Source of the DNA: Chiloscyllium plagiosum
Taxonomy: Eukaryota
Assembly: GCF_004010195.1 (NCBI RefSeq)
Contig: NC_057752.1
Coordinates: 15,017,585 to 15,081,584, forward strand
DNA length: 64,000 bases
Direction: 5' to 3'
Part shown: piece after piece, positions 3,350 to 54,755 of the stretch
How positions within the stretch are numbered: the stretch's first letter is position 1
Layout of the letters: the number at the start of each line of letters is the position of its first letter
Notes under the pieces: generated by a model
Told to the model about the DNA's origin: nothing
What the model saw: the letters and a program-made list of their open reading frames with translations, nothing else
The model's database searches: none
Program-made: the position numbers and the translations under genes

Positions 3350-5080
3350 AAATTAAGACAGTTCATCACAGTTCAGTTAACGGCTCCTGGGTTCAGGGAA
3401 AGCTGATTAAGGAATGATGAAATATCCTGAAGATGCAGCCAGGATGAGACTGCCAGTCTGGGATGAGCACGCCACGTTAGGAGGACACCACCATGTCAGA
3501 CTTCTGGAATAATGGGCTGGAAACTTCTGCCAAAGAAGACTGCCATGCCAGGCCAAGACTACCACTCCTGACAAGACTGGCATACGGGCTGCTGGAAGCC
3601 AACTCGTCCCTAGTCTGGGCGAAGCCTCCTGTTCCCCATTTGATGCTCCTCCAAACACTGCCGCCGATCCACTGTCCGTCCCTTTCACTGATCTTTCCGC
3701 TCCTTCAGGTGCCTGGGCCTAGCTGCAGGCCTGGAACTTCAGCCATGCACATCTTTTTAAATTTGTCCTCTCATTTTGGCTCCTTTTCTAAGTGGGTTAT
3801 GGCTTCATCCTAACTATTCTATCCAGCCCACTCATGATTTTGAAAGCCTCAATCAGATCTCTCAGCGTTATTCTCTCCAATGTCCCAACTTCTTCAATCT
3901 ATCCTCAGGACTGAAGTTCATCAAATCGGGAACCATTCAAGCAAATTGCTTCTGCACGGTTTCCAGTGCATTCACATCTTTCCCATAATGTAGTGCCCAC
4001 AACATTACAGTATATAGTGTACAGTACTGTACTGCGGGGTTTTGCAGTTTCAGACTGAGGTTGGGCTGAAAGATGAGTGGAGGCGGCAAGTTGCCGTACG
4101 GCATTGCTGGCTTGGGAATGGTGATGTAGCAAGTATCATTCAAGTCAAAAATTTCAACCACGGCTTTAACTGAGCCAAAGCACGCTCATGAAGCTATATG
4201 ACAGTGCTGGGTCTGAAAAGTCCATGCCAAAATCCCAACCTTTGATGAAAGAAAATGACTGCAGAATTTCATGTTGATGGCATAAAGTATTTAAGTAAAT
4301 GAATGTAAAATAAATTTAGCTGTTTTATATATTAAGCTTTTTCAAATTGGTACCTATTATAAAGGCTGTGTCATTTTTTTGTTTTCTACGTTTTCGATTG
4401 TGGACTAACATGGAACTAGGAATGGTTTAAAATGCAAGGACTGTGGAAACTATTGCTGCCTTTTTCAAAACACATTGCTAAAATTCACTATGTGGTGTTT
4501 ACACTGTTGCTTTGTTGAAGCAGTGGGAGAAAATGTTTGTAAATGAGGAGGCTCCAGGATGCATGTGCAAAATGAAAATTGCTTGGTGATAAGTGGCTGA
4601 TTGGTTTATGCAATTATGATTAGTCATGGATAACAAGTCTCTGGTTCCTGGCCAGCTTAACAGGTTGTGGTTGAGAGCAATACAGGAAAAAAAACCTTCA
4701 GACTGCTGGAAGGACAGGTAGCATGTGTGTTTTGCTCTTTCCCTGCAGTCAAAATGCCTGAAGCCTGAAGAAAGTTATTTTCTTCCATCCGTTGCTATAA
4801 GCTGTTGCCTTTACCCAATGATGAAGAGATTTTCTAGCTAGTGTACCAATCACTTTGTACCTCCTACAAAGAAGTGAAAGAACTAGAGAATGGAGATTGA
4901 AGAACAGAGAGTGCAGAGAAGCAAAGGATCATCTCAACAAACCCTTTAAACTGGTGCCATTGAACTAATATTCCTGTTTTCTTTCCATTCATAAAACCAT
5001 TTTTTTCTTAGTTTGTGAGAAGATTTGTAGCTTGGGTGCTCGTTGCTGTGGTTCTGTTCGCCGAGCTGGAAGTTTTTGTT

Positions 5081-5120
5081 GCAAATGTTTCGTCCCCTGT
5101 CTAGGTGACATCCTCAGTGC
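5081..5120 (-). ncRNA. Minimal hammerhead motif in opposite arm (helix III G>A decayed)
   Basis: Reverse complement GCA-CTGAGGA-t-gtcacct..aggggac-GAAAC-ATT-TGC. Confidence 0.65.
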
Positions 5121-5435
5121 TTGGGAGCCTCCTGTGAAGCGCTTCTGTGGTGTTTCCTCCGGTATTTATAGTGGCCTGTCCCTGCCGCTTCCGGTTGTCA
5201 GTTTCAGCTGTCCGCTGTAGTGGCCGGTATATTGGGTCCAGGTCGATGTGTTTGTTGATGGAGTTTGTGGATGAGTGCCATGCTTCTAGGAATTCCCTGG
5301 CTGTTCTTTGTTTGGCTTGCCCTATAATGGTAGTGTTGTCCCAGTCAAATTCATGTTGCTTGTCGTCTGCGTGTGGACAGGCCACTATAAATGCCGGAAG
5401 AAACGCCACAGAAGCGCTTCACAGGAGGCTCCCAA

Positions 5436-5475
5436 GCACTGAGGATGTCACCTAGACAGGGGACGAAACGTTTGC
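5436..5475 (+). ncRNA. Minimal hammerhead ribozyme motif, intact core
   Basis: GCA-CTGAGGA-t-gtcacct(agac)aggggac-GAAAC-GTT-TGC. Confidence 0.8.
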
Positions 5476-6744
5476 AACAAAAACTTCCAGCTCGGCGAAC
5501 AGAACCACAGCAACCATTTTTTTCTGTTTATCAGTATCAGACTTATGTGTGTGTTTTGGGTTTTAAAAGCGGGTTAGAGTTTTGCTAATTCAGCCATACA
5601 TTGACATTTTATAGTTATTTACTTGTGGTTACGACTTTCTTATTTGTATTAACTAGAAATTCTTGTGAAATACAGGAACCTGGTCAGGGTTTTTTGTTAA
5701 ATTGATTACAATAGCTCTGTAAATTTAGGACTTTGTGTGCTTTGATTAAATCATTACACTTAACTTAATACGGCTCACAATTCAGTGCACTTTTTCCCAA
5801 GTGGGTCGTAATATTATGTTGAAAACAATGGCACATCTGCAGTTTGTCATTAATTTCTGTTAGATAGAACTAGCCTGATTGACGTTACTTTCAGGTGCTG
5901 CGAGAGTAATAGCTTGACAATAGAATTAGATTCTCGGGTCACAGGTGGTAAACTGGCCGAATATGAGAAGGACTGGGTTGGGTCCATTTCAACATTGGGC
6001 AGAACAGGAAATGTTGATATGTCCGTGAGAACAAAGTGTGAATCCTGGGCTTAGTTCAGTGCATATCATCAGATTTTGCAAACTGTACAGAAAGCTCATC
6101 CAAGAAGGAATTTGCTTCAAGGTGACAGAGTAACAACCACTGGGGGAGCAATACTTCTAACTGCCCTATTCTTTGTAAATTTTCTATAGAATCTATAGCC
6201 AATATTTATGATGTCTTTGAGTGTGCAGTTTTACAAACAAAACAGCAAATACTTAGAGTTCAAATAAATCCCTTGCTATTGTGGTTTTGTGTGAATGAGT
6301 GTCACAGGAAGGAAAGGTCTGTACTGGGCGACTGATCACTCAATTACTTTAACATTAGCTGAGATACCGGGGTTTGAGAGGAAAAGGAAAGGCAAGGAAC
6401 AGTTTTTCCGTGTCTTAATACTTGAACAAAAAGTCTATGGGAAAAGAATATTCAAGAATACAAGCTGTCATTTATCTTGGAGTTCAATTTTTGTTTATAT
6501 AGTTGTGATTTTAAATAATGTAATATTAATTTGGAAACTCTTGAACATAATTTAAAAGTCATTTGCTGGAGCTAATGAAATCACGGGTGAAATGTGTTCC
6601 TACATTTGTACACCCTGTCCAAAATCTTGTACACTTGGAATCTAATGGTTGCAGCAGGGTAAGCATATTTGTTCAGACTTTGCTTCACTGATTGTTGTTC
6701 GGTCACTATACCTCAACACCAACCTCCTGAATATTCACAAGAAT

Positions 6745-15185: not shown

Positions 15186-16137
15186 AATCCACCCTAGTCA
15201 GTAGGCCCTATATTTAGCATCTGATCTGGAGTGCAGCACTGAAGCATCAGCCTAGATTTTGTACACCAATCTCTTGGATCCACAGGGACAAGAATGTTAC
15301 CAACTGTGAAATGCTGTAGCACGCCTCTTAGCTCAAGAACTTATAAAGATGGTAACAAATGCTAGCTTTCCCACAATATCCCATGAAAGAATAAAAATAG
15401 TTCGGAAACTGTACAGAAAATTTGACTTTGAAAGCAGCAACATTTAATCCAAAAATAAAAGTCCTGCAATGTCTTCTGTTCCTGATTCCACGCCATTCCC
15501 TCTGGTTTCCCCATGGATCTATTCTTGTCCCTGGCCTATTTCTCATGCACATGCTGTCCCTCAGTGGTATTGCCCAAAAGCGAAGTGTTAGTTTTCATAC
15601 GGACGTTGACCACAGCCTGCTCTACCTCACCATCATCTCTATCTCAACCCCTCTACTAGAGTCATACAGCGTGGAAACAGACCCTTCAATCCAACTGGTC
15701 CATGCTGACCAGGTTTTCCAAACTAAATTAGTCCCATTTGCCTGCGATTGGCCCATATCCATGGATAGTTTTCCTATTCATATACCTGTCCAAATATCTT
15801 GTAAATGTTGTAACTGTGCCTGCAGCTACCACTTCCTCTGGCAGTTCATTCCAAATATATACCACCTGCTGTGTGAAAAAGTTGCCACACAGGTCCCTTT
15901 TAAATCTATGCCCTCTCACCTTAAATCTATACCCTCTAGTTTTGGACTCCCCTACCCTCTGGAAAAGACCTTGGTTATTCGTCTTGCCTATTTCTGACAT
16001 GATTTTCTAGACCTCAATAAAAGTCTCAGCTTCTCTTTATAATGTAAACCATCCAGTCTCGGTAACATCCTTGTAAACTTTTTCTGCACCTTTTCCAGTT
16101 TAATAGCATCCTTCCTATAGCAGGGTGACCAGAACTG

Positions 16138-18230
16138 TTGCTGAAAAAGTGCAGCAGGTCAGGCAGCATCCAAGGAACAGGAGAATCGACGTTTTGGGCA
16201 TAAGCCCTTCTTCAGGAATGAGGAGGGTGTGCCAAGCAGGCCAAGATAAAAGGTAGGGAGGAGGGACTTGGGGGAGGGGCATTGGGAATACGATAGGTGG
16301 AAGGAGGTTAAGGTGAGGGTGATAGGCCGGAGTGGGGTTGGGGGTGGAGAGGTCAGGAAGAAGATTGCTGGTCAAGAAGGCGGTGCTGAGTCCGAGGGTT
16401 GGGACTGAGATAAGGTGGGGGGAAGGGAAATGAAGCTGGAGAAATCTGCATTCATCCCTTGTGGTTGGAGGGTTCCTAGGTGGAAGATGAGGCGCTCTTT
16501 CTCCAGGCGTCGTGTTGCCATGCAGGTCCTTGGCGATGGAGGAGGCCAAGGACCTGCATGTCCTTGGCGGAGGGGGAGTTAAAGTGTTCAGCCACGGGGC
16601 AGTTGGGTTGGTTGGTGCGGGTGTCCCAGAGGTGTTCTCTGAAACGTTCCGCAAGTAGGCGGCCCCTCTCCCCAATGTAGAGGAGGCCACATCAGGTGCA
16701 GCGGATGCAGTAAATGACGTGTGTGGAGGTGCAGGTGAATTTGTGACGGATATAGAAGGATCCCTTGGGGCCTTGGAGGGAGGTGAAGGGGGAGGTGTGG
16801 GCGCAAGGTTTGTATTTCTTGCAGTTGCAGGGGAAGGTGCTGGGAGTGGAGGTTGGGTTGGTAGGGGGTGTAAGACCATAAGACCATAAGACATAGGAGT
16901 GGAAGTAAGGCTATTCGGCCCATCAAGTCCACTCCGCCATTTAATCATGGCTGATGGGCATTTCAACTCNNNNNNNNNNNNNNNGGCGGAAATGACGAAT
17001 GTATCTGGAGGTTGGTGGGGTGGTAGGTGAGGACCAGTGGGGTTCTGTCCTGGTGGCGATTGGAGGGGTGGGGTTCAAGGGCAGAGGAGCGGGAAGTGGA
17101 GAAGATGCAATGGAGAGCATCGTTGACCACGTTGGAGGGGAAGTTGCGGTCTTTGAAGAAGGAGGCCATCTGGGTTGTTCGGTATTGGAATTGGTCCTCC
17201 TGGGAGCAGATGCAGCGGAGGCGGAGGAATTGGGAATATGGGATGGCGTTTTTACAGGGGGCAGGGTGGGAGGAGGTGTAATCTAGGTAGGTAGTAAATG
17301 TCTGTATTGAGTCGGTCGCCCGAGATAGAAATGAAGAGGTCTAGGAAGGGGAGGGAGGAGTCTGAGACGGTCCAGGTAAATTTGAGGTCAGGGTGGAAGG
17401 TGTTCGTAAAGTGGATGAACTGTTCAACCTCATGGGAGCACAAGGTAGCGCCAATACAATCATCAATGTAGTGGAGAAAAAGTTGGGGGGGTGGGGCCAG
17501 TGTAGCTGCGGAAGATGGACTGTTCCACATATCCGACGAAGAGGCAGGCATAGCTGGGGCCCATGCGGGTGCCCATGGCTCCTCCTTTCGTTTGGAGGAA
17601 GTGGGAGGATTGGAAAGAGAAGCTGTTCAGAGTGAGGACCAGTTCAGTCAGTCGAAGGAGGGTGTCAGTGGTAGCATGCTGGTTGGTTCGGGAGGAAAGG
17701 AAGAAGCAGAGGGCTTTGAGGCCTTCGTGATGGGGGATGTAGGTGTATAGGGACTGGAGTCCATGGTGAAGATAAGGCGTTGGTGGCCGGGGAAGCGAAA
17801 ATCATGGAGGAGGTGGAGGGCGTGGGTGGTGTCCCGAACGTAGGTGGGGAGTTCTTGGACTAAGGGGGACAGGACAGTGTCGAGGTATGCAGAGATGAGT
17901 TCGGTGGTTGCAGGAGCAGGCTGAGACAATGGGTCGGCCGGGGCAGTCAGGTTTGTGGATTTTAGGCAGGAGGTTGTCTGCTGGTTTGATAGTGAGGTTG
18001 GGGTTGGAACAGAGGGAGTGGAGGGCTGCACGTTCCGAGGGTGAGAGGTTGGAGTGGGTGAGAGGAGTGGACAGGTTGAGGTGGTCAATGTCGCGGCGGC
18101 AGTTGGCTATGAAGAGATCGAGGGCAGGTAGGAGGCCAGCACGGGGTGTCCAGGTGGATGGGGAGTGTTGGAGGCGGGAGAAGGGGTCGTCGGAGGGTGG
18201 CCGAGAATCCTGGTTGAAGAAGTTCCAAGG
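16138..18230 (-). mobile_element. Neptune-type Penelope-like element, 5'-truncated and frameshifted (RT, Cys-rich linker, GIY-YIG, pLTR)
   Basis: LIFTMD, FLHYIDDCIG, FHPDLKFTW...LPFLD, FPCNCKKYKPCAH linker, VIYCIRCT*CGLLYIGE; pLTR HHR at ~16186-16217 with GAAA>AAAA. Confidence 0.9.
16871..16969 (-). mobile_element. CR1 3' tail nested in the PLE, next to an assembly gap
   Basis: (TAAGACCA)n tail plus CR1 3' UTR. Confidence 0.8.
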
Positions 18231-21440: not shown

Positions 21441-21578
21441 TGTTTATGCCCTTCCTGAAGAAGGGCTTATGCCCGAAACGTCGATTCTCCTGTTCCTTGG
21501 ATGCTGCCTGACCTGCTGCACTTTTCCAGCAACACATTTTCAGCTCTGATCTCCAGCATTTGCAGCCCTCATTTTCTC
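21441..21578 (+). mobile_element. Single-arm PLE pLTR+tail insertion
   Basis: 14-bp TSD CATGTTTATGTCTA at 21427-21440 and 21579-21592; same pLTR family as 16138-16220. Confidence 0.9.
21453..21484 (+). ncRNA. Minimal hammerhead ribozyme motif, intact core
   Basis: TC-CTGAAGA-a-gggc(ttat)gccc-GAAAC-GTC-GA. Confidence 0.8.
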
Positions 21579-21869
21579 CATGTTTATGTCTAGTATTGTA
21601 TTCTCCATTCAGTGGAATGGGACTGAACTTGCAGGTTTAGCTGGCTCTCTGTTCTTTACATTATGAAGGACACTGTTCAAGATCACTGAGTGAATCTTTG
21701 AAATGTTGTATGTGAACTCAGAACCCTGTAAGGACTCTGCCGGTTAACACATTGGATGTTGCTGACATTGTTCATTCAGTCCTTTGTTTTCTTATCTTAA
21801 CTGACTGCCTTCACCACCAGCCCACCACAGGATGTAAGGTCTATCCCATTTCATTACTCTGACCCAGAA

Positions 21870-23825: not shown

Positions 23826-26602
23826 TATATATAGAACATAGAACAATACAGTGCAGACAGGCCCTTCAGCCCTCGTTGTTGCACCAACCTGTGAACTATT
23901 CTCAGCTTGTCCCCCTACATTATCCCAAAATCATCCATGTGCTTATCAAAGGATTGTTTAAATCTCCCTAATGTGGCTGAGTTGACTACCTTAGCAGGTA
24001 GGGCATCCCACGCCCTTACCACTCTCTGCGTAAAGAACTTGCCTCTGACATCAGTCTTAAATCTATCACCCCTCAATTTGTAGCTATGCCCCCTCGTACA
24101 AGCTGACGTCATCATCCTAGGAAAAAGTCTTTCACTGTCTACCCTATCTAATCCTCTGATCATCTTGTATGTCACGACCAACTCCCCCCCTTAGCCTCCT
24201 TCTTTCCAATGAGAAAAAACCCAAATCTCTCAGCCTTTCCTCATAAGACCTTCCCTCCAGACCAGGCAACATCCTGGTAAATCTCCTCTGCATCTTTTCC
24301 GATGCTTCCACATCCTTTCTGTAATGGGGCAACCAGAACTGTACACGATATTCCAAGTGTGGTCACATCAGTGTTTTGTATAGTTGCAGCACGATATTGC
24401 GGTTCCGGAACTCAATCCCTCTACCAATGAAACCTAACACACCGTATGCCTTCTTAACAGCACTATCCATCTGGGTGGCAACTTCCAGGGATCTATGCAC
24501 ATGGACTCCAAGATCCCTCTGCACATCCACACTACCAAGAATCTTTACATTGACCAAGTACTCTGCCATCCTGTTATTCTTCCCAAAATGCATCACCTCA
24601 CATTTAGCTGCATTGAACTCCATTTGCCACCTTTCAGCCCAATTCTGCAGTTTATCCCAATACCCCTGCAACCTGTAACATTCTTCCAAATTGTCCACCA
24701 CTCCATCGACTTTAGTGTCGTCTGCAAACTTACTAATCCGTCCACCTATGCCTACGTGTAAGTCATTTATAAAAATGACAAACAGCAGTGGTCCCAAAAC
24801 ACCACTTGTAACTGGACTCCAGACTGAATATTTTCCATCAACCACCACTCGCTGCCTCTTCTAGAAAGCCAGTTTCTAATCCAAACTTATCACCCTCAAT
24901 CCCATGCCTCTGCATTTCTCCAACAGCCTACCATGTGGAACCTTATCAAAGGCTTTACTGAAGTCCACGCCAACTGCCCTACCCTCATCTACATGCTTGG
25001 TCACCTTCTCAAAAAACTCAGAGGTTTGTGAAATAGGACCTGCCCTTGACAAAACCATGTTGACTATCTGAAATCAAATTGTTGCTTGCTAGATGATTAA
25101 AAATCTTATCTCTTATAATCCTTTCCAAAACCTTTCTGATAACAGAAGTAAGGCTCACTGGTCTATAATTACCCAAGTCATCTCTGCTGCCCTTATTGAA
25201 AAAGGGCACAACCTTTACAATCCTCCAGTCCTCAGGTATTAAACCCGTAGACAATGACGACTCAAATATCAAAGCCAAAGGCTCTGCTATCTCCTCCCTA
25301 GCTTCCCAGAGAATCCTCAGATAAATCCCATCTGGCCCAGGGGACTTGCCTACTTTCACTCCTTCTAGAATTGATAACACCTGTGCGTAACTAACCTCGA
25401 TTCTTTCTAGTTAATATCTTGTATCTCATTCTTCTCCTCTACAATATTCTTCTTTTCCTGAGTGCACACTGATGAGAAATGTTCACTTAGCACCTCTCCG
25501 ATCTCTACAGGGTTCACACTCAACTTCCTACTCCTGTCTTTGACTGGCCCTATTCCGACCCTAATCATCCTTTTATTCCTCATCTTTTATTCTACTTGCT
25601 AAAGACTGCTCGTGTCCTCTCTTTGCTCTTCTTAACTCTCTCTTTAAATCCTTCCGATCTGATCTGTAACTCTCCATCGCCTCACCTGTACCATCTTGCC
25701 TCATCAACACATAAGCGTCTTTCTTCTTCTTAACAAGAGATGCAATTTCTGTAGAAACCATGGTTCCCTTACCTTATCACTTCCTGCCTGCCTGACAAGG
25801 ACATATATATCAAGGAACATGCAATATCAAGGAACATGCAATATCTGTTCCTTCACCCAGCTCCACATTTCGATTGTCTGCTTCCCCTGCATTTTGCTAC
25901 CCCATTCTATGGATCCTAATTCTTGCCTAATCGCATTATAATTGCCCTTGCCCCATCGATAACTCTTGACCTGTGGCATGTACTGATCCCTTTCCATCGC
26001 TCAACTAATCGTAACTGAATTATAGTCACTCTCTCCAAAGTGCTCACCTACAACTAAATCAAACACCTGGTCTGGTTCATTACCAAGCACCAGATCCAGT
26101 GTGGCCTCCCCTCTTGTCAGCCCTTCGACATACTGTGTCAGGAAACCCTCCTGTACACATTGGACAAAAACTAATCCATCCGACATACCAGAGCTATAAC
26201 ATTTCCAATCAATGTTGGGGAAGTTAAAGTCCCCCATAATGACCACACTGTTCCTTGGAAACAGTAGAGACAGTTGACACTGCCAGTCCCCGAGGCGGCC
26301 AGGTCTGTCAATCAAAAGTTGGCGTGGAGGCAGAGCTGAAGAGTCGGACATCGCACAGAGCCGTGGTAATAGGGGACTCCATAGTGAGAGGAACAGACCG
26401 GGGTTTTTGTGGCAGCAGGCGGGACTTAAAGATGGTGTGTTGCCTTCCTGGTGCCAGGGTTAAAGACATCACAGACAGAGTGCAGGAAATCCTCAAGGAC
26501 GAAGGTGAAGAACCTGAGGTGGCGGTACATGTCGGAAAAAATGATGTCGGGAAGAAGAGGAGGAACATACTACAGCGGGACTTCGGAGAACTAGGAAGAA
26601 GG

Positions 26603-26603
<1 letters not shown>

Positions 26604-26649
<46 letters not shown>
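26604..26649. repeat. G46 homopolymer
   Basis: 46 consecutive G inside CR1 ORF1. Confidence 0.95.
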
Positions 26650-26650
<1 letters not shown>

Positions 26651-28261
26651 GGGGAGGGGACAAACTGGATGTTTAAGAAGGAAATTGAAGGGAAAGTTGG
26701 AACAAGGGAAGTCAAGAAAGACAACTGTATCAATGAGGCAGAAAACTCAAAAAGGGATCATGCTGTAAGATTGAGTGAAATAGGAGTGGATGGGAAGGGT
26801 GAGGACAGTAACAAATTAAAAATACGATACATGAATGCATGAAGCATTAGAAATAAGATGGATGAGCTTGAGGCTCTTTTGGAAATTGGCAGATACGATA
26901 TTGTGGGGATAACTGAGACGTGGCTTCAAGTGGACAGGGCCTGGGAAATTATTATTCAAGGCTACACGTGCTATCGTAAGGACAGACTGACAGGCAGAGG
27001 GGGTGGGGTGGCCATGTTGGTAAGGGATGATATTCAGTCCCTTGCGCAGGGGGACCTAGAATCAGGGGATGTAGAGTCAGTGTGGATAGAGCTGAGAAAT
27101 TCTAAGGGTAAAAAGACCCTCTTGGGAGTTATCTACAGGTCCCCAAATAGTAGTCTCGATGTCGCATGTAAGTTGAATCAGGAGCTGAAATTGGCCTGTC
27201 GCAAAGATGTCACTACAGTTGTTATGGGGGATTTCAACATGCAGGTCGCCTGGGAGAATCAGGATGGTATTGGACCTCAAGAAAGAGACTTTGTGGAGTG
27301 CCTCAGAGATGGATTCTTAGAGCAGCTGGTGCTGGAGCCTACCAGGGAGAAGGCAATTCTGGATCTGGTATTGTGCAACGAACCAGAATTGATCAGGGAC
27401 CTCAAAGTGAAAGAGCCATTGGGACGTAGTGACCATAATACAATAAGCTTCAATCTGTAATTTGAGAGAGAGAGGGTACAATCAGAAGTGACAATATTTA
27501 CATTGAATAAAGGGAACTATGGAGCTATGAGGGAGGAGTTGGCCATAGTTCAATGGTGCAATACCTTAGCAGGGATGACAGTGGAGGAACAAGGGCGGAT
27601 ATTTCTGTGTATAATGCAGAAGATGCAGGATCAGTTCATTCCAAACAGGAAGAAAGATCCTAGGAGGCAGCATGGGTGGCCATGGCTGACGAGGGAAGTT
27701 AAGAAACATATAAAGTTAAAAGAGAAAAAGTATAACATAGCAAAGATAAGTGGGAAAACGGAGGACTGGGAAGCTTTTAAAGAACAACAGAGGATTACTA
27801 AGAAGGAAATATGCAGAGAGAAAAATGAGGTACGAAGGTAAACTAGCCAAAAATATAAAGGAGGATAGTAAAAGATTTTTTAGGTATGTGAAAGGCAAAA
27901 AAATGGTTAAAACTAAAATTGGGCCCTTGAAGACAGAAAATGGGGAATATATTATGGGGAACAAAGAAATGGCAGAAGAGTTGAATTGGTACTTCAGATC
28001 TGTGTTCACTGGGGAAGACACAAGCAAACTCCTTGAGGTAACAGTGACTGAAGGACCTGAACTTAAGGGAATTTATATTTGCCAGGAATTAGTGTTGGAG
28101 AGACTGTTAGGCTTGAAGGTTGATAAGTCCCCGGGGCCTGATGGTCTACAACGCGGGTACTGAAGGAGGTGGCTCGAGAAATCGTGGATGCGTTGGTGAT
28201 TATTTTCCAGAGTTCAATAGATTCCGGACCAGTTCCTGTGGATTGGAGGGTGGCTAATGTT

Positions 28262-32330: not shown

Positions 32331-33651
32331 CCTTCAATATGAAGAATAGCAAATGTGACATTTTTTTTTTCAAGCAAGGATGTAAGGGTTTTCCGAGTAA
32401 CTACAGGCCAGTCAATTTAACATCAGTGGTGTGCAAAATTTTAGAAATAATAATTGGGGGAAAAATAAGCAGGCATTTGGGATGGCTTGAGTTATTTAAG
32501 GAGAACTGGCTTGGATTGATAAAAGGGAGAGGGTAAACAAAATTGGAAATTACTGGAAAAACTTAGCTGGTCTGAGAAAGCAGAGTTAATGTTTTGGGTC
32601 CAGTGGCCCTTCAAAACTGATTGGAAAAGGTTGCTGAAGATGGGGTGGGAGAGGGCTAAGGTGGAGATGGAGCCAGAGAGAGAGAGACACAAACAGTTTG
32701 GCAGCCAAAGGAATGGGAAATTGTGTTTGATTGACCAAGAATGTTGATGAAGGGAATGCAATAGTTTTTTTTTTTCTATATAGATTTTTAAGAAAGTGTT
32801 TTAGAAGGTACCTTCATAAAAGGCTGGTTAACAAAGTTGATGTTCATGAAATACCAGTATCCAAGGGTTAGAAAAATTGGTCCAATTCAGGGAATCATGG
32901 TAACTGGAGGATAGTAGCCAGTGGAGTTTCCCAAGGGTCAGTGCTAGGCCACTGCTTTGTTTATTTATAGATATATATGGCTTGCATTAATAAATATTAA
33001 GTAAAATTTCAAAATTTGCCGATGGTGCTAAACATAGACGTGTGACAAATGGTGAAAACACAGGTTAGCAAAGTGGACGTGAGTGTTAGGTGATACGTTA
33101 TTGCAGAAGGGATGGGGAACGGCACAGTTCTAAAGTGTGTGCAGTGACAGAGAGACCTGGGGGGTACACATGCAGATATTTTTGAAGGTGACAGCAAATG
33201 GGACCTTGAGCTTCACAAATAGAGGTATCAAGTACAAAAGCAGGAAGTGATACTGAACCATTATAAAGCTCTGGTTAGATCCCAACTCATGTATTTTGTC
33301 CAGTTGTGCGCACCACACCTTAGGAAGACTGTGAGGGCCATTGAAAGGATGTAGAGTTGATTTACCAAAATGGTTCCAGGAATCAGGATTTCATCTCCAA
33401 AGTTAGCTTGGAGAAGTTGAGGTTGGAGATTAGATAGAAGTGTACACATTGATGGTAGGCTTAAATGGTAGGTTGGTTGTCCCAGTGAATGTATTTCTTT
33501 GTCCCTCAACTCTACTTTTTGTCCCCCATCCAGCCTCTTCCAATCTGCATCTATGTAAAAACAATGACTGCAGATGCTGGAAACCAGATTGTAGATTAGA
33601 GTGGTGCTGGAAAAGCACAGCAGTTCAGGCAGCATCCGAGGAGCAACAAAA

Positions 33652-33683
33652 TCGACGTTTCGGGCAAAAGCCCTTCATCAGGA
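33652..33683 (-). ncRNA. Minimal hammerhead ribozyme motif, intact core (mirror copy)
   Basis: Reverse complement of tcgacgtttcgggcaaaagcccttcatcagga. Confidence 0.8.
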
Positions 33684-33692
33684 ATACTGTAT

Positions 33693-33724
33693 TCCTGATG
33701 AAGGGCTTTTGCCCGAAACGTCGA
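33693..33724 (+). ncRNA. Minimal hammerhead ribozyme motif, intact core
   Basis: TC-CTGATGA-a-gggc(tttt)gccc-GAAAC-GTC-GA. Confidence 0.8.
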
Positions 33725-34030
33725 TTTATTTGCTCCTCGGATGCTGCCTGAACTGCTGTGCTTTTCCAGGACCACTCTAATCTACAATCTGCATCTATGG
33801 CTGTTCCAATGCTCTGCATCATTTCAGCAGTTTCCAGTTTCCTGGCACCAGTTGTCCCCTTGCAGCTGCATATTTAATCTCTCCTAACCTCCATCTTTAT
33901 TTTTGATTCTTCCTTGAACAGAGGCCTGACCTGCCCTGTCCACTGCCACTCTCTCTCTGCTGGCTGAAATTGCTTTCATGATGAGCAACTTCACCTTTAA
34001 CTTGTTGCACTTTCTTCGAGCAAAAGGTGT

Positions 34031-37986: not shown

Positions 37987-39078
37987 GGCATGAGATTGAA
38001 GGTAATTTAGCAGTTTGGATTAGAAACTGGCTTTATGAAAGAAAGCAGCGAGTGGTGGTTGATGGAAAATATTCAGCCGGGAGTCCGGTTACTAGTGGTG
38101 TGCCACAAGGATCTGTTTTGGGACCACTGCTGTTTGTCATTTTTATAAATGACTTAGACGCAGGCATAGGTGGATAGATTAGTAAATTTGCAGATGACAT
38201 TAAAGTCGGTGGAGTAGTGGACAATTTGGAAGAATGTTACAGGTTGCTGGGGAGATTTAGATAAGCTGCAGGATTGGGCGGAGAGGTGGCAAATGGAATT
38301 CAATGCAGCTAAATGTGAGGTGATGCACTTTGGGAAGAATAACAGGAAGGCAGAGTACTGGATCAATGGAAATATTCTTGGTAGTGTGGATGTGCAGAGG
38401 GATCTTGGAGTCCATGTACATAGATCCCTGAAAGTTGCCACCCAGGTGGATAGTGCTGTTAAGAAGGCATACACTGTGTTAGGTTTCATTTGTAGAGGGA
38501 TTGAGTTCCGGAGCCGCAATGTCATGCTGCAACTATACAAAACGCTGGTGCGGCCACACTTGGAATATTGTGTACAGTTCTGGTCGCCCCATTACAGAAA
38601 GGATGTGGAAGCATTAGAAAAGGTGCAGAGGAGATTTACCAGGATGTTGCCTGGTCTGGAGGGAAGGTCTTATGAGGAAAGGCTGAGAGACTTGGGTCTG
38701 TTCTCATTGGAAAGAAGAAGGCTAAGAGGGGATTTGATAGAGACATACAAGAGGATCAGAGGATTAGATAGGGTAGACAGTGAAAGTCTTTTTCCAAGGA
38801 TGATGACGTCAGCTTGTACGAGGGGGCATAACTACAAATTGAGAGGTGACAGATTTAAGACAGATGTCAGAGGCAGGTTCTTTACGCAGAGAGTGGTAAG
38901 GGCGTGGAATGCCCTACCTGCCAATGTAGTTAACTTAGCCACATTATGGAGATTTAAACAATCCTTGGATGAGCACATGGATGACGATGGGATAGTGTAG
39001 GGGGACGAGCTGAGAATAGTTCACGGGTCGACGCAACATCGAGGGCCAAAGGGCCTGTTCTCCACTATATTGTTCTAT
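37987..39078 (+). mobile_element. Younger 5'-truncated CR1 with an uninterrupted 235-codon C-terminal frame
   Basis: ORF 38293-39000; same subfamily as 23830-24915 (FPRMMTSACTRGH.YKLRGDRFKTDVRG). Confidence 0.92.
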
Positions 39079-40200: not shown

Positions 40201-41470
40201 TGATGTAGCAAAGTGGAGGTCGACACCCTTCTGATAATTAAAACCAAAACACCCAGAAAAGCTTGCCTCGCTTTGTAATATGATAAAGAGGTGTGACAAG
40301 GGGTACAGCCTACCTCTCGATCCCCAATCTGTTATAAAGGAGTGGTTAAATGAAATGAAATCCTTTCACTCACTCTTTCATCAACAAGTAACAATTTATT
40401 CATTTAACCCTAACAGTGAACAAATTAACAGAAATACTAACAAGGTAAAAACAATGACTGCAGATGCTGGAAACCAGATTCTGGATTAATGGTGCTGGAA
40501 GAGCACAGCAGTTCAGGCAGCGCCCAAAGAGCAGCGAAATCGACGTTTCAGGCAAAAGCCCTTCATCAGGAATAAAGCTGAAGGGCTTTTGCCCGATACG
40601 TCGATTTCACTGCTCTTTGGGCGCTGCCTGAACTGCTGTGCTCTTCCAGCACCATTAATCCAGAATTACTAACAAACCAAACAATTCCTCTCTAACTACC
40701 TATTCCCAAATAAAGCAAGGTTCTAATAGGATGCTGTTTGAATAAATACAAGTCCCACTTTTATAAATCCAAGTAATAAGAAAACAATAAATTAAAACTT
40801 AGTCTCTCAAAGTTCACTCAATGGGTCTTCCAGAACTTTCTGTATCTTCTTCCATTGTCTTCCTCTGTCTGAAATATCTTCTCTGACGTTTTCTCTAAAA
40901 TTTCTTTTGCCTGGAATATTATCGAAAAGTACTGTGCTATGTTTCAGAGATTGTGTTCTGTTTTACGGAGCATGGCGATTTCTTGTGAGAGCCCAATATT
41001 TATTTCTCAGATGGCAGGTTTGCTTTCTCCTCAGATGGCAGTTGGTTCTGCCTGATTTTCCAAAATGCCCTCATCTTTATACCTTTGATGGCATATTAAT
41101 TTCTTTACAATCGATTGGTTTGAGGTCATCAAAACCAACAGTTTTAAATTTAATTAGGTTTTGGTATCCAGGGCCTGGTTTAAATTAATTAGCTAATATT
41201 CGGGCTGGTGGCCTTAGCATCAAAACAAGCCGAGGTTGCCAACAACACTGCCAATTGATACATGTGTTTCAATTTGAACACCTGCAATACTACTGCCCAC
41301 AGACATTGATTTTTAAATCTCCAAGCTTTGGAAAGCACATCATCTCTTAAAGGGACCAAGCACTTTATTAACTCCTGCNNNNNNNNNNNNNCCCCCAACC
41401 ACCATCATTTTTACAAACCAATTCTGGCTTCCCGCCTTCCACTTCATGAGTACTTTACACAACTTTGTAA
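40201..41470 (-). mobile_element. LTR-like non-coding insertion in CR1 (contains a 13-N gap)
   Basis: Interrupts the FADD/TK motif; tttatt at ~40395 (minus-strand polyA signal); clean TSD not seen. Confidence 0.5.
40444..40666. mobile_element. Palindromic PLE pLTR insertion
   Basis: TSD cagaaatactaacaa (40429-40443) and cagaattactaacaa (40661-40675); minus-arm HHR core intact, plus-arm truncated with GATA. Confidence 0.9.
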
Positions 41471-42626: not shown

Positions 42627-42792
42627 TGACATCACCACAAACCCAGGAACCCCATCCAGGAGAAAGATATAAATAGAAAGCAAGAGACAACAGCTTCGCT
42701 TTACTTGGAGGTCGCCACTGATGATGTTACCTAGCCAGGTAATGAAACGTCTGGATATCAAACCTACAGCTCAGCGAGCAAACCTACACCCT
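42627..42792 (+). mobile_element. Poseidon-type pLTR-only insertion
   Basis: TSD aaggaggatgaa (42615-42626) and aaggaagatgaa (42793-42804); homologous to the pLTR at 2680-2830. Confidence 0.85.
42715..42754 (+). ncRNA. Minimal hammerhead ribozyme motif, intact core
   Basis: CCA-CTGATGA-t-gttacct(agcc)aggtaat-GAAAC-GTC-TGG. Confidence 0.82.
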
Positions 42793-43624
42793 AAGGAAGA
42801 TGAAATAAGTAATGCACACATGATTAAGAGCAATCAGTACTGGACTTCATAATTTGCATTATTCAAAATTAAAGATTTCAAAAAAGAAATCTGTGTATGC
42901 TGTGAACACAGACTGCTCTCAACACCTGCCTACCGGATAGTCACGAGCTATGATTTAAAAAAAAATTCTGCACATTAGCTTAAATCTTTTTGCTGTGGTT
43001 CTTGATGCTTCACCAATGGGAACAGTTTTTTCCTATTCTCTCTGTCCAGATGCCTCATAGATTTGATATAAGTATTCAAAACCATCAACTTCACTCCGTC
43101 TTCTCTTCTTCAAGGAAAACACTCCGTCTTCTCTAATCTGTCCACATAACTGCAGTTCTTCACCCCTCGAACCATTATCATAAATTGGCAGCCTTTCTAA
43201 AGCCTTGACATCTTTTCTGAAGTGTGGTGCCCAGAACTGGATCCAATAGCCCAGCTGAGACCAAGCCTTTTTTAAAGATTTATTATAACTTCCTTGCTTT
43301 TGTACTCTTCCTCTATTTATAAAGCCCAGGATTAAGCGGACCTTATTAACTGCTTTCTCAACCTCTCCAGCCACCTGCGCATAAACCCCCAGGTCCCTCT
43401 GCCCCTATACCCTCTTTAGAATTTTATGCCCTTTTTAGCTTTTGTACTCAGAGGGATTTTGTACTCTGGGACACCTTTATTCCTGTATTCCATCTAGACT
43501 TGCACATTCCAAGTAATAAGTAACCCCTGTTTTTCCTGCCAAAATATATAACCTCATAAGTATCTGTACTGAACATCATTTGTCCATTAAGCAATTTTAT
43601 TACTATCCTATTGTAATTTTTCAT

Positions 43625-45380: not shown

Positions 45381-45576
45381 AGATTAGAGTGCTGCTGTAA
45401 AAGCACAGTAGATCAGACAGCATCCGAGGAGCAGGAAAATCAACATTTCGGGCAGGAGCCCCTCACCAGGCTTTTGCCCAAAACGTTGATGTTCCTGCTC
45501 CTCGGATGCTGCCTGACCTGCTGTGCTTTTCCAACACCACTCTAATCTCCAGCATCTGCAGTACCCACCTTCGCCT
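45381..45576. mobile_element. Palindromic PLE pLTR insertion (tail on right, HHR cores destroyed)
   Basis: 14-bp TSD AAATTATTGCCTTA at 45367-45380 and 45577-45590. Confidence 0.88.
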
Positions 45577-46025: not shown

Positions 46026-46080
46026 GGAGGAGAAAGTGAGGTCTGCCTGACCTGCTGCGTTTTTCCAGCAACACATTTCC
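46026..46080. mobile_element. 55-bp PLE mini-insertion (minus-strand tail fused to plus-strand pLTR piece)
   Basis: 13-bp TSD GCCTCCACTGTAT at 46013-46025 and 46081-46093; junction overlap ctgc. Confidence 0.85.
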
Positions 46081-46499: not shown

Positions 46500-49040
46500 A
46501 GAAATAGATAAGGGCAGGGTTAAGTATGTAAATGGTCCCAGAGTATAGTGAACAGGTTTGAGGAATTGGAAGTAGAAATTGCTCGGGGGGATATGAAATA
46601 GTAACATTGTCAGAAATGTGGCTCAAGCCAAAATAGGGCTGAATATTTAACAGGGAGAAAGTGAGGACTGCAGATGCTGGAGTACCAGAGTTGAAAAATG
46701 TGGTGCTGGAAAAACACAGCAGGCCAGGCAGCATCTGAGGAGCAGGAGAATCAACGTTTTGGGCATAAGCCCTTCTTCAGGAATCCTGAAGAAGGGCTTA
46801 TGCCCGAAACAACAATTCTCCTGCTCCTCGGATGCTGCCTGGCCTTCTGTGTTTTTCCAGCACCACATTTTTCAACTCTGAATATTTAACATCCTGGGCT
46901 ATGAAAGTTTTTAGTATAAACAAGGCGGATAAAAGGAAGCAATCTTGGTCAAAAATAGTCTCATTGCAGTTCCTGAATTGGAATCTATATGGCTGGAGGT
47001 GAGAAATAGGAAAGGGGCAGTGACCTTGTTGGGTATTTATTATCGACCTCCCAATAGAGGGGAGGAAGTAGAAGAGAATATTTGTAGGCAGATTATGGAA
47101 ATCTGCAGGAGAAGCAGGTTTGTGATAACTGGTGATTTCAATTACCCTAGGATAGACTGGGAAAAAGAGGTAGAATATGGGATATGGAAAGGGAGAAATG
47201 CCTGCATTATGTGCAGGAGAACTTTCTGGAACAGTGTTAGGGAATAAGGCAGGCCAAGTGGGGAACATTTGAGTGAGGAGGCATTTAGGAAATAGTGATC
47301 ACGATATAATAAGGTTCAATATAAGTTGGAAAAGGGGAGATAATACAGGCTCAATGGTACAACTTTGAGGGGAGCATAGGAGGAGAGGGACTTTGGGTTT
47401 CAAGTGCAGATTCTCTGAAAGCGCCAGGCAAATTGAAACAGTTGATAAGAAGGCTTATAGGATCCTTGGATTTATAAATAAAAGCATAGTATAAAAGCAA
47501 GGGAGTTATGCTACACCTCTACAAATCATTGGTTAGACCACATTTGGAGCATTGTGTTCAGTTCTGGGCACCTTATTTATGGAAGGATGTTAAAGCCCTG
47601 GGGAGAGTAAAAAGGAGATTTTACTGGAATGATAGCAGGAATGAGGGAGTTTACATACAAGGAAAGATTAGAGAAATTGGGCTTACTTCTCCTTGGAGCA
47701 GAGATGTTCAAATTATGAACAAATTGACAGGGTAAAGAAGGATATTCTGTTTCCACTAGTTGGTATGTCAGTAATTGGGGGTCACAATTTCAAGATTGTC
47801 AGCAAGAGAGCGAGGAGTGAGATGAGGAGAAACTTCTTTATACTGGGAGTTATTTGGATTTAGAATGCTCTGCCTGGGAGAGCAGTGAACGTGGATTCCA
47901 AAGGAGGTTTCACAAGATAGCTGGATATATATAAGTGGAAGTGGCATTGTCAAAAAGTATAATTGCTCTGGCCACTTGCACTCAATTTACCACCAATTGG
48001 GAAGAAAAAACATCGGTGTTGCGTTCAGTCCACCTATTGGTATGATCTGTATTAAGTAGAGGTAAAGCATATGTAAAAGAATATAAAGCTATCACGAAAC
48101 ATAAACCCACTGTTGCAGCCTCTATTAAGTCAGATTCTGTTTCTCATTTTCATTTGAAAACCTGACCTTCCTGAACAGTGTTACTGTGTTACTTATAAAC
48201 TGTTAATATCCGGGCTAAATAGATGCACTGTTGTTTTGTATGTTTAGTATCCATCTGCAAATCTTAAAATATAGGGCCCTGAAAAAGTTACATATGTACA
48301 TTTTAAACTTTTGCAACTGATGTTTTATCTCTAGGTTGTTTAGAAAATATGAATATGAGGAGTGATGCAGGAGAACATTGAAAGACAATATAAAATAGGG
48401 GGTACGAGTCTAAAGGGAGTGTGTAGGGACCGGGGTGTATATCTGCACAGATCATTGAAAGTGGTAGGACAGATGGAGAGAACAGTTAATAAAGCATACA
48501 ATGTCCTCAACTTTATTAATAGGGGCATAGAGTACAAGAGCAAGGAGGTGATATTGAACTTGTATTAGATCTCAGCTGGAGTATTGTGTACAGTTGTGGG
48601 TGCCACGTTATAGGAAAAATATAAAGATACTAGAGAGAGTACAGAAGTGATTTCCAAGAATGATTTCAAGAATAAGACACTATGAGGCTTGATTGACGAA
48701 GTTGGGACTGTTCCCTTTGAAGAGAAGAAGGCTGAGAGGAGATAGCTGGAGGTTTTCAAAATTATGAACGCGCTGGATAGACTAGGTAGGGATAAGCTGT
48801 TCCTGCTCTTAACAGGAACAAGAAAGAGAGGGTATATAGTTAAAGTGAATTGTAAAATAAGTGAGGGTGATATGAGAAAAATCATTTTTCACACAATCAT
48901 TAATTAAAGTACGAAATGCACTGCCTAGAAATGTGGTGGAGGTATGTTCAACTGAAGTATTCCAGAGGGCAGTGGGGATGATTATTTGGAAACCAGTGGT
49001 GTGCAAGGATAAGGGGGAAAGGAAGGAGACTGGCACAATA
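46500..49040 (+). mobile_element. Old CR1 fragments (EN and two 3' regions)
   Basis: ESIWLEVRNRKG...YYRPPN...ITGDFNYPRIDW; YKSLVRPHLEHCVQFWAPY. Confidence 0.75.
46653..46880. mobile_element. Palindromic PLE pLTR insertion inside an old CR1 EN region
   Basis: 14-bp TSD CTGAATATTTAACA at 46639-46652 and 46878-46891; centre cttcaggaatcctgaag; both HHRs decayed. Confidence 0.92.
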
Positions 49041-50584: not shown

Positions 50585-51068
50585 AAAGTTTGGGTGAAGA
50601 TTTGTAGCTCGGGTGCTCGTTGTTGTGGTTCTGTTCGCCGAGCTGGGAATTTGTGTTGCAGACGTTTCGTACCCTGTCTAGGTGACGTCCTCAGTGCTTG
50701 GGAGCCTCCTGTGAAACGCTTCTGTGATGTTTCCTCCAGCATTTGTAGTGGTTTGAATCTGCCGCTTCCGGTTGTCAGTTCCAGCTGTCCGCTGTAGTGG
50801 CCGGTATATTGGGTCCAGGTCGATGTGCTTATTGATTGAATCTGTGGATGAGTGCCATGCCTCTAGGAATTCCCTGGCTGTTCTCTGTTTGGCTTGTCCT
50901 ATAATAGTAGTGTTGTCCCAGTCGAATTCATGTTGCTTGTCATCTGAGTGTGTGGCTACTAAGGATCACAGCGCTTCACAGGAGGCTCCCAAGCACTGAG
51001 GATGTCACCTAGACAGGGGACGAAATGTCTGCAACACAAATTCCCAGCTCGGCGAACAGAACCACAAC
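50585..51068 (-). mobile_element. Poseidon-type PLE insertion with inverted pLTR (same family as 5009-5511)
   Basis: 12-bp TSD AGTCTTCCTACC at 50573-50584 and 51069-51080; HHRs at 50658-50697 (minus, GAAAC-GTC-TGC) and 50993-51032 (plus, GAAAT-GTC-TGC). Confidence 0.92.
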
Positions 51069-52370: not shown

Positions 52371-52479
52371 CAAAAGTGATGACTGCAGATGCTGGTGAAG
52401 GGCTTTTGCCCGAAACGTCGATTTTCCTGCTCCTGGGATGCTGCCTGACCTGCTGTGCTTTTCCAGCACCACTCTAATC
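52371..52479. mobile_element. PLE insertion: 25-nt minus-strand tail joined to plus-strand pLTR arm
   Basis: TSD aatgtacagggaagg (52356-52370) and aatgcacagggaagg (52480-52494). Confidence 0.88.
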
Positions 52480-53483: not shown

Positions 53484-54755
53484 AGAGACATAATCCTACA
53501 GCATGGAGACAGGCCCTTTATCCCAACATAGTCCAGGCCGACCATATTGTCCATCCACTCTAACCCCATTTCCTTGCACTTGGACATCGTCTAAACCTTT
53601 TATATCCATGCTTTTGTCTGAATGCCTTTTAAATGTTGTCTAATTACTTGCCTCAGCTACTTCCACTGCTGCTCATTCCATATGTGTACCACCCTCTGTG
53701 TAAAAAAAAACAAAGTTGGTGCCTCATGTTCCCTTTTATGCTTCCCCCTCTAACGTTAAACTGATGCCCTCTAGTCCTCGATTCTGCAACCCTGGGAAAA
53801 AGACTGAGTGCATTCACCCTATCCATGCCCTTCATGATCTTGTACACTTCAATAACATCCCCTCTCAGTCTCCTACGCTTTAAAGAAAAGCTTCCTAGCT
53901 TGTCCAACCTCTCCCTATAACTCAGACACTTGAGTCCTGGCAACATCCTTGCAAATTTCTTCTGTGCTCTTTCCAGTTTAATAACATCCTTCCTGTTGCA
54001 AGTTGACAAAAACTGAACACAATACTCCAGATGTGACCTCACCAACGTCCTGTACAACTGCAACATAACTTCCTAGCTTCTATACTCAATGCCCTGACTG
54101 ATGAAGGCCAGTGTGCCAAAAGCCTCCTTCAGTGCCCTGTCTACCTGTGATTCTACTTTCAGAGAACCATGCATCTGAACTCCAAAGTCCCTCTGTGTTA
54201 CTACAATCTTTAAAGTCCCTGTTCACTACAAACCTCCTACCTTGATTTGACTTTTCCAAAATACTCTTATCTATATTAAACTCCATTTGATATTTCTTGG
54301 CCCACTACCCCAGCTGATCAAGGTCCTGCTGTAATTTCTCATAACCTTGCTCATTGTCCACAATACCTCATATTTTAGTGTCATCTGCAAACTGACTAAC
54401 TATGCCTTCTATATTCTCATCCAAATCATTGTTATAGATAACAAATAGCAACGAGCCCAGCATCGACCCCTGAGGCATACCACCAGTCACAGGTCTCCAG
54501 TTAGACAAGCATCCTTCCACAATTACCCTCTGCTTCCTACCATGAAGCCAATTAAATATTAAATTTTCCAGCTCCCCCTGAATTTTGGATTAGTGGTGCT
54601 GGAAGAGCACAGCAGTTCAAGCAGCATCCGAGGAGGAGCAAAATCGACGTTTCAGGCAAAAGCCCTTCATCAGGAATAAATGCCAGGTGATCGAACCTTC
54701 CAGAGTAGCTTGCCATATGGAACCTTATCAAAGGCCTTACTGAAATCCATATAGA
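53484..54755 (-). mobile_element. CR1 RT to 3' end
   Basis: YRTLVRSHLEYCVQF...RGHQFNVRG; QFADDTKI. Confidence 0.85.
54581..54680 (-). mobile_element. PLE pLTR arm with hammerhead (54644-54675)
   Basis: Reverse complement TC-CTGATGA-a-gggc(tttt)gcct-GAAAC-GTC-GA. Confidence 0.82.

Follow-up and report, generated by a model that had tools for sequence, protein, structure and literature searches.

Short palindromic insertions in Chiloscyllium plagiosum as probable two-ended products of Penelope-like elements

The stretch of DNA considered here (the window) comprises 64,000 nucleotides of the shark Chiloscyllium plagiosum (assembly GCF_004010195.1, contig NC_057752.1, positions 15,017,585 to 15,081,584 of the forward strand) and contains several short palindromic insertions which we assign to the Penelope-like elements (PLEs). 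The type palindrome lies at 33541..33799 (Table 1). Its two arms (33585-33687 and 33689-33791) are 103 nt long and 97% complementary, with a 1-nt centre between them, and a 30-nt unpaired tail (33556-33585) extends from one of them. A perfect 15-bp direct repeat, the target site duplication (TSD), encloses the insertion, and each arm carries a hammerhead core (CTGATGA..GAAAC-GTC). The arms, the tail, the TSD and one core per arm had been described in a first-pass annotation made from the letters alone, and all of them have been borne out, with the cores lying on opposite strands. The short arm overlaps the right TSD by 7 nt, and its true start is ~38 nt inside the tail end.

Seven inverted repeats of at least 30 nt are present in the window. 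Six of them are the type example and five further palindromes, while the seventh consists of two separate inserts that pair with each other. The five further palindromes were found where the first-pass annotation had placed them, each with a direct repeat of 12-15 bp (15 with one mismatch, 14, 14, 14, and 12 bp), and their short arms begin 34, 28, 33, 33, and 36 nt inside the tail. The proposed range of 28-36 nt holds for the apparent offsets of all six palindromes (30 nt in the type copy), but not for the true start in the type copy, which the TSD overlap places deeper.

The palindromes can be identified, from the coding sequences to which longer copies are joined, as the shortest insertions of known PLE types, four of them Neptune-type (family A) and two Penelope/Poseidon-type (family B). 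Family A has been identified by starting at the type arm and moving stepwise into longer copies elsewhere in the genome. In these copies, the pseudo-long terminal repeat (pLTR) is contiguous with an open reading frame (ORF) that has the reverse transcriptase (RT) motif YIDD (Pfam RVT_1, E 2e-07; broken copies) and a GIY-YIG domain (Pfam E 2.4e-04, 21.8 bits, just below the cut-off of 22.6). The translations of copies L143, L148, and L167 show a linker C-x4-C-x2-C and IYCIRCSRCGLLYIG, with two cysteines inside GIY-YIG, and tail, hammerhead, and ORF are contiguous in copies L148, L166, and L167. A CX2-5CxxC linker between the RT and the endonuclease (EN) defines Neptune and is absent from Penelope/Poseidon, according to PMC8557442. 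By this published definition family A classes as Neptune-type, although Nematis also shares a linker motif. An insertion bias toward microsatellites, which is a hypothesised and not a defining Neptune trait (PMC8557442), has not been seen in family A, where the 39 TSDs discussed below are non-repetitive and 63% AT. The four family A palindromes of the window fall in three tail variants (A1, A1, A4, and A2). The family B ORF has RT and GIY-YIG motifs, read in the translations of copies L124, L131, and L134, with internal cysteines and without the linker, which identifies it by motif as Penelope/Poseidon-type; a Pfam scan of two family B pieces gave no RT or GIY-YIG match. Family B is young, with copies (L113-L140) ~96-99% identical to the query.

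In three near-full-length copies of family A (L189-L191), the ORF is preceded by the pLTR and by the tail, which continues into the ORF. Therefore, the tail end is an internal position of the RNA. The features of a PLE are found together in this family, including a pLTR at both ends and partial tandems (L189-L191), a 30-40 nt tail at one end, an inverted 5'-truncated copy, and a hammerhead motif, although all ORF copies encountered are broken or gapped. The PLE origin and the two families proposed in the first-pass annotation are supported, and the two families turn out to be two clades. Its view of the palindromes as separate mini-retroposons does not hold, as they are the smallest members of a graded series of autonomous PLE insertions.

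The frequency and layout of these insertions have been assessed in a sample of 1.4 Mb (1.398 Mb non-N), made of 14 regions, of which one includes the window; their coordinates were chosen arbitrarily on large contigs. Copies L001-L030 were picked by a query that includes the type centre and are excluded from all end-point counts, and the family B end counts exclude L111 (the query itself) and L112 (gap-flanked). The sample contains 277 family A arms, 126 of them with the tail; ends have been scored in 216, after exclusion of 53 arms from diverged relatives and eight that align poorly. Among pairs of arms within 200 nt, 56 are head-to-head, two are tail-to-tail, and three are direct, and the tail is present on exactly one arm in 51 of the 56 head-to-head pairs. 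The products are mostly 100-250 nt and have no ORF. The 56 short palindromes in 1.4 Mb agree with the high abundance suggested earlier. Outside the window their density is 39 per Mb, which would give ~1.4e5 copies if extrapolated to the genome of 3.56 Gb. Short-read contigs of three organisms gave 74,220-85,570 records each on the type locus.

A junction-anchored TSD was found in 28 of 37 one-tail pairs of the first 864 kb, compared with 4 of 400 mismatched-flank controls. In the full set, under a slightly stricter filter, the TSD passes in 39 of 61 one-tail pairs, with lengths of 11-17 bp; 29 of the 39 are 14 bp (17) or 15 bp (12) long. The boundaries of these insertions are equally narrow. 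The tail-side boundary falls within 8 nt (-3..+4). In 35 of the 39, the inner start is 31-42 nt from the tail end, so the short-arm ends are not randomly placed. In family B, 28 loci have been examined, and a TSD of 9-14 bp is present in 14 of the 15 that have an inverted arm, with the inner start at reference positions 34-42. Seven of the 39 family A insertions lie in host repeats, and other copies of these repeats span the site with one copy of the TSD, six of the seven without a gap at the junction. These single-copy sites show that the flanking repeat is a true duplication, and they supply empty sites with a single TSD copy, the absence of which would have spoken against the first-pass annotation.

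It has been considered that the two arms are adjacent independent insertions, that they were later made alike by gene conversion, or that they result from misassembly. A few long-distance pairs without a TSD are chance neighbours, and many assembly gaps lie inside long copies. But one TSD surrounds both arms, the orientations are strongly skewed (56:2:3), and at the type locus contigs from two other organisms cross from each unique flank into the element. The arms of a pair are 0.907 identical to each other compared with 0.948 to the best other copy (39 pairs). This rules out general gene conversion between the arms, as no general homogenisation has taken place, and fits independent decay after insertion. 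Taken together, explanations of this kind are hardly credible. The type insertion is present in all three organisms compared (A, B, and C), as judged from flanking contigs, and is therefore older than their split. Relative to the window, the left flank of the type locus is extended by 13 nt at 33081 in organisms B and C, and in organism B it has also lost 4 nt at 33467.

The centres of the palindromes are highly variable, as had been claimed, with 39 junction types among 41 pairs. Overlaps of 1-3 nt occur at 10 of the 41 centres, and many others have inserts, often copied from nearby element bases. The type centre is matched exactly 8 times in the genome, and its recurrence (L001, L004, L006, and L029) across sequence variants and subfamilies indicates that it arises repeatedly. 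Miniature inverted-repeat transposable elements (MITEs) have fixed symmetric termini, a conserved interior, and a short fixed TSD. A non-autonomous palindrome, either a MITE or a palindromic master RNA with inherited centres, would account for the terminal-like inverted repeats, for the ~1e5 extrapolated copies, and for the recurrence of the type centre. Such an origin is very improbable given the number of centre types, the occurrence of recurring centres in different variants, the asymmetric ends, and the contiguity with an RT-GIY-YIG ORF. Nor do the varied centres and the mostly 14-15 bp TSDs resemble the fixed breakpoints and termini with 2-9 bp TSDs expected of a MITE.

On both strands, the second base beyond the TSD is often a G, with 15 of 29 cases in the left flanks and 17 of 29 in the right (32/58, p 7e-09), and the target motif, as read from these flanks, is two-fold symmetric. 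At the inner site, the mean microhomology between target and element is 1.71 nt, compared with 0.61 nt in a two-sided null, and none of 5000 simulations gave a value as high. Overlaps of 5-7 nt are present in 5 of 35 clean junctions, compared with 0.2 in the same null. The TSDs with a long element overlap are still 14-15 bp long, which argues that the shared bases are derived from the target. Insertions of a single arm also have TSDs at both sites, the score filter being passed by 19 of the 44 singles from the tail site and by 18 of the 46 from the inner site. Four of the 18 TSD-bearing inner singles hide a short inverted tail piece, and are therefore two-ended too, while ~8 of the 18 are clean.

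Based on these observations, we propose that the palindromes are probably single short insertions of EN-containing (EN+) PLEs, in which two nicks ~14 bases apart each prime a cDNA and the two cDNAs are joined head to head. The element protein would nick both strands ~14 nt apart, so that the future TSD becomes part of the 3' ends; such 14-nt 3' overhangs could be produced by a two-fold symmetric (dimeric) nuclease. The top 3' end would prime at the tail site (T), and the bottom 3' end at the inner site (I), ~35 bases further in, where the primer may often anneal to the RNA by 2-7 nt. Both cDNAs would extend toward the 5' end of the RNA, and their 3' ends would be end-joined and then filled in, producing joints which we presume to be similar to those made by polymerase theta. 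Because both arms copy the same stretch of RNA, the templates would have to be two RNAs of common source, or a single RNA that is copied twice. A common source is suggested by the likeness of the arms, with the own partner at percentile 0.14 compared with 0.5 by chance. Extension of one nick only would give a single arm, and priming on the 3' pLTR would give the longer copies. The first-pass annotation had already suggested that both nicked strands prime, one at the tail and one at a fixed internal site. The two fixed sites and the head-to-head joining stand, while the tail site is itself also internal to the RNA.

The alternative that a single strand, the first cDNA or an antisense element RNA, folds back and primes itself to make the inverted arm is the published hypothesis for head-to-head PLE junctions (PMC3846280). 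Many centres do have 1-3 nt overlaps or lie inside the self-complementary stem II. Also, the arms of a pair share their subfamily, and in the type example and the 40444 palindrome the arms resemble each other above any other sampled copy. However, under fold-back it should always be the same arm that exceeds the other, whereas among 41 pairs the inner arm exceeds the tail arm by more than 2 nt in 19 (by more than 10 nt in eight) and falls short of it in 14. Either arm may be longer in family B too (L113, L126, and L136). Fold-back also leaves the target-derived microhomology at the inner site unaccounted for, as well as the fixed inner start, which is seen alone with a TSD in the clean inner singles, and we regard it as improbable.

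Several points weigh against two-ended priming. The TSD filter is failed by 22 of the 61 one-tail pairs, and an excess of microhomology at the tail site has not been shown (0.85 compared with 0.43 nt, in a one-sided null without chance TSD extension). The PLE of Anolis carolinensis, Poseidon (PAc), primes without homology in vitro (PMC11167929). At the type locus, none of the three organisms compared showed an orthologous empty allele. The case for priming from both nicks in a single event is built on end products, and no intermediate was observed.

The shortness of the family A products is a separate question. Counting from core residue C3 of the hammerhead toward the 5' side of the RNA, 71 of the 124 arms that reach C3 stop within 10 nt past it, and 53 pass. 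Losses in the 11-nt windows before this interval are 44/168, 17/185, and 12/197, and in those after it 6/53 and 6/47. Among paired arms, in which the junction is visible, 46 of 57 stop within the 10 nt. The modal stop is at +3/+4, on TCATTC in subfamilies A2 and A3, which we take to be an initiator-like motif. Of the 31 long copies, 29 have a TTATC at the TATA position, ~30 nt behind which the initiator-like motif lies; it is found 31-36 nt upstream of C3, among bases that differ between subfamilies. In two diverged relatives, 33 nt upstream, its place is taken by CATAAAA and by TATAAA (the latter read by eye). Copy L189 starts at +5/+6. Seven arms jump into the ORF start, and five of these leave from +4..+10 (by eye). 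As a candidate cap signature, a C follows all seven arms ending exactly at +4 and none of 40 long arms; in at least six of the seven, this C may come from the other arm or from inverted nearby bases. We lean slightly toward the explanation that family A insertions are short because both cDNAs run off the 5' end of an RNA that would start 4-8 nt before the core, as these motifs suggest.

A block to the RT or to a 5'-3' exonuclease at a protein-bound or dimerised ribozyme offers another explanation for the stop, which we consider unlikely though worth weighing. The arms end where the 5' strand of stem I lies, and the anole protein binds this region and helps the ribozyme to fold (PMC11167929). 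The 53 passing arms also suit such a block, as do copies with the ORF start, which lack a sharp stop, but the passing arms are explained by priming on the 3' pLTR. Structure is expected to stop the RT on the 3' side, before unwinding, and the TATA-position motif is conserved at a fixed spacing, in the long copies as in the two diverged relatives. Two other causes have been rejected. A 3' splice site of an intron is contradicted by AG positions that differ between subfamilies and by paired arms that join directly, without a common upstream exon (both by eye). Ribozyme cleavage as the origin of the 5' ends of the arms is contradicted by the absence of a peak at the -27 site, with only 6 of 216 arms ending at -30..-26.

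Run-off at an RNA 5' end also meets with contrary observations. Of 29 scored copies with the ORF start, seven reach C3, and two of these stop within +10 (0, 5, 11, 17, 20, 63, and 70). In family B there is no pile-up 30 nt behind the TATAAAT box, as 27 of 28 tail arms run past. The cut-offs of single arms depend on 31 long references and may be artificially sharp. In addition, the start of Penelope of D. virilis precedes the ribozyme by more than 100 nt, made up of 46 nt and an intron of 75 nt (PMC2377424, PMC4209133).

Some further copies bear on the 5' region of the element. In L264, L266, L267, L273, L274, L285, and L287, a pLTR arm that reaches about the 5' edge of the hammerhead is joined 170-710 nt inside the ORF start, and the copy then traverses the tail and the pLTR again, which looks like a template jump from the 5' end of the RNA. 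L269, L278, L279, L281, and L265 lack most of the ORF, the start of which continues directly into the 3' region, by internal deletion or by a jump; three of these junctions cluster ~190 nt after the tail. The family B tail arms (L113-L140) end mostly 178-300 nt in, beyond the TATAAAT box, unlike those of family A.

A joint reading of both parts, which we put forward tentatively and hold to be possible, is that PLEs integrate by symmetric two-ended target-primed reverse transcription (TPRT) and that Neptune RNA begins at the hammerhead. A protein dimer would hold two element RNAs, possibly paired via dimer-dependent hammerheads, and no classical second-strand priming would take place. With an RNA that starts at the hammerhead, priming on the 5' pLTR would give strong-stop-like cDNAs of ~130 and ~95 nt. 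These could join as palindromes or jump to another RNA, regenerating pseudo-LTRs and partial tandems.

The hammerhead motifs remain predictions. A minimal-hammerhead descriptor, stem II variants included, gave 62 matches in 1.40 Mb and none in shuffled DNA, while an Rfam scan of the window returned no match at the gathering score. A descriptor-perfect core is present on both arms in only one of the six palindromes (33541). The insertion at 50585 has two cores with one C-to-T change, those at 40444 and 5009 have one core each, and none passes in 45381 and 46653. Among 41 pairs, the core is present on both arms in 12 and on a single arm in 19, while in 10 neither arm extends as far as the core. 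As the cores lie on opposite strands, any transcript has one core in sense, paired to its antisense. In the predicted fold of the type example (-192.5 kcal/mol) the core is paired, and freeing the core and stem II costs 40.4 kcal/mol. The idea that each insertion creates a new double-ribozyme hairpin is not sustained by these results. Metazoan PLEs carry minimal type I hammerheads, and in Schistosoma dual motifs lie on opposite strands 100-700 bp apart (PMC4209133). The shark motifs share with them an unpaired base after the core, G10.1-C11.1, and a palindromic ACGU that replaces helix III, but in family A the predicted stem II is only 4 bp long, with a stem I of 2-4 bp. A diverged relative on contig C3 (L046-L050, sample ~73230-73410) has the same tail-plus-inverted layout and a 15-bp TSD; its hammerhead is a U3-A8 core variant with a 6-bp stem I.

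Table 1. Features of the type palindrome and other PLE-derived insertions in the window; type assignments and hammerhead cores are predicted from sequence
Feature	Position	Strand	Remarks
Left copy of 15-bp TSD	33541..33555	+	exact repeat
Tail-bearing arm, 3' part of Neptune-type pLTR, subfamily A1	33556..33687	- (element sense)	ends 6 nt 5' of hammerhead C3
Tail, RNA stretch between outer (T) and inner (I) priming sites	33556..33591	-	continues into ORF in near-full-length copies
Minimal type I hammerhead core of tail arm, predicted (CUGAUGA, 4-bp stem II, GAAAC-GUC)	33654..33681	-	
Head-to-head arm junction	33688..33688	.	exact 33-nt centre used for the genome matches
Inverted arm starting at inner (I) site	33689..33784	+ (element sense)	ends 8 nt 5' of C3
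Minimal hammerhead core of inverted arm, predicted	33695..33722	+	
Right TSD copy	33785..33799	+	first 7 nt also match element at I site (microhomology)
Neptune-type A1 palindrome	40444..40660	.	15-bp TSD, one mismatch (40429-40443, 40661-40675); 6-nt microhomology at I site
Neptune-type A4 palindrome, right-hand tail	45381..45576	.	14-bp TSD (45367-45380, 45577-45590)
Neptune-type A2 palindrome	46653..46877	.	14-bp TSD (46639-46652, 46878-46891); 3-nt microhomology
Penelope/Poseidon-type (family B) insertion	5009..5511	.	14-bp TSD (4995-5008, 5512-5525)
Family B insertion, layout as 5009..5511	50585..51068	.	12-bp TSD (50573-50584, 51069-51080)
Single tail arm (A2)	21452..21579	+	14-bp TSD; end lies 3 nt 5' of C3; 5' junction has a short insert that looks templated
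Very short two-ended insertion	46026..46078	.	inverted I-site arm with ~18 nt of tail attached; 13-bp TSD
Two-ended insertion	52371..52479	.	~25-nt tail piece and inverted I-site arm; 15-bp TSD, one mismatch
Single I-site arm, tailless	54582..54683	-	stops ~10 nt 5' of C3
Longer Neptune-type 3' fragment	16136..16969	-	from I site into ORF, up to assembly gap

The family B insertion at 5009..5511 consists of a long tail arm with the end of the GIY-YIG ORF plus an inverted I-site arm, and the one at 50585 likewise has the end of a GIY-YIG ORF that lacks the linker. Older family B relatives are present at 2424-2850, with the end of a GIY-YIG ORF, and at 42716-42794, with a hammerhead that has a 7-bp stem II. 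A third hammerhead-bearing repeat at 11270-11400 (core at 11356, - strand) is unrelated to families A and B and is probably another PLE end. The segments 26243-27457, 38218-38997, and 23834-24910 are presumably fragments of long interspersed nuclear elements (LINEs), with what we take, from their motifs, to be an ORF1-like piece followed by an apurinic/apyrimidinic (AP)-endonuclease-like piece, and RT-end pieces in two 89% identical copies.

The proposed mechanism can be compared with twin priming of L1, in which both nicked strands prime and an inversion results, with microhomology at the second primer. In twin priming, the second primer uses the same RNA in front of the first cDNA, at a site that varies, the product has a poly(A), and the inverted piece does not overlap the direct one. 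The insertions described here share the microhomology of the second primer, but their arms copy the same stretch of RNA from fixed sites and lack a poly(A). Two of the 10 inverted-arm cases among L001-L030 (L016 and L027) come near to arms without overlap.

Closer parallels exist among the PLEs. Pen2a_Av of Adineta vaga has a 31-nt tail, an inverted pLTR that is 37 bp shorter, and a 9-bp TSD (PMC3846280). As in the EN+ elements Pen2a_Av and Pen3a (PMC3846280, PMC8557442), an inverted 5'-truncated copy lies beside the direct one, a 30-40 nt tail is present at one end, the head-to-head junction is palindromic, and empty sites have one TSD copy. Unlike the A. vaga elements (PMC3846280), the insertions in the shark are mostly 100-250 nt long, lack an ORF, occur at ~39 per Mb, and have TSDs of 14-15 bp in family A and 9-14 bp in family B. 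Self-priming has been proposed for the A. vaga elements (PMC3846280), whereas the present data favour two primed cDNAs. In vitro, the RT of PAc starts at two internal sites, which mark the limits of the tail, nicking and extension take place on both strands of the target, the RNA template is uncleaved, and the protein is a predicted dimer (PMC11167929). The covered main text does not link the two start sites to two nicks of one event or to inverted copies (PMC11167929). PAc has a 5'-ATT-3' cut preference (PMC11167929), compared with the symmetric G/C flank motif and the inner-site microhomology found here. Non-LTR retrozymes are short hammerhead-bearing derivatives of PLE pLTRs in vertebrates, arranged in tandem head-to-tail units with hammerheads on the same strand (bioRxiv 10.64898/2026.07.22.740005); the shark insertions differ in being head-to-head pairs (56 compared with 3 direct within 200 nt) with cores on opposite strands. 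In D. virilis, Penelope transcription starts inside the pLTR, and the mechanism of pLTR regeneration was considered not evident (PMC2377424).

The insertions do not represent a new system, since the footprint, the opposed hammerheads, and the two start sites have all been published (PMC3846280, PMC8557442, PMC4209133, and PMC11167929). What is added here is the inner-site microhomology, the symmetric target motif, and the sharp stop 5' of the hammerhead. In the open literature, supplements and subscription papers aside, we found no model with two nicks and two cDNAs and no mapped Neptune start. The origin of the inverted repeats, tails, and pseudo-LTRs of PLEs has been called open (PMC8557442, PMC2377424, PMC11167929).

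The ~1e5 short two-ended products yield numbers that can be tested in vitro, including the 14-nt spacing of the nicks, the symmetric cut motif, the microhomology at one start site, and the predicted start of the RNA. For annotation, the insertions are MITE-like in appearance, yet they are class I products. Where the palindromes are transcribed, they would form RNA duplexes of 80-100 bp instead of working pairs of ribozymes. If symmetric two-ended TPRT is true, one mechanism would account for the tail, the inverted repeat, and the pLTR of these elements.

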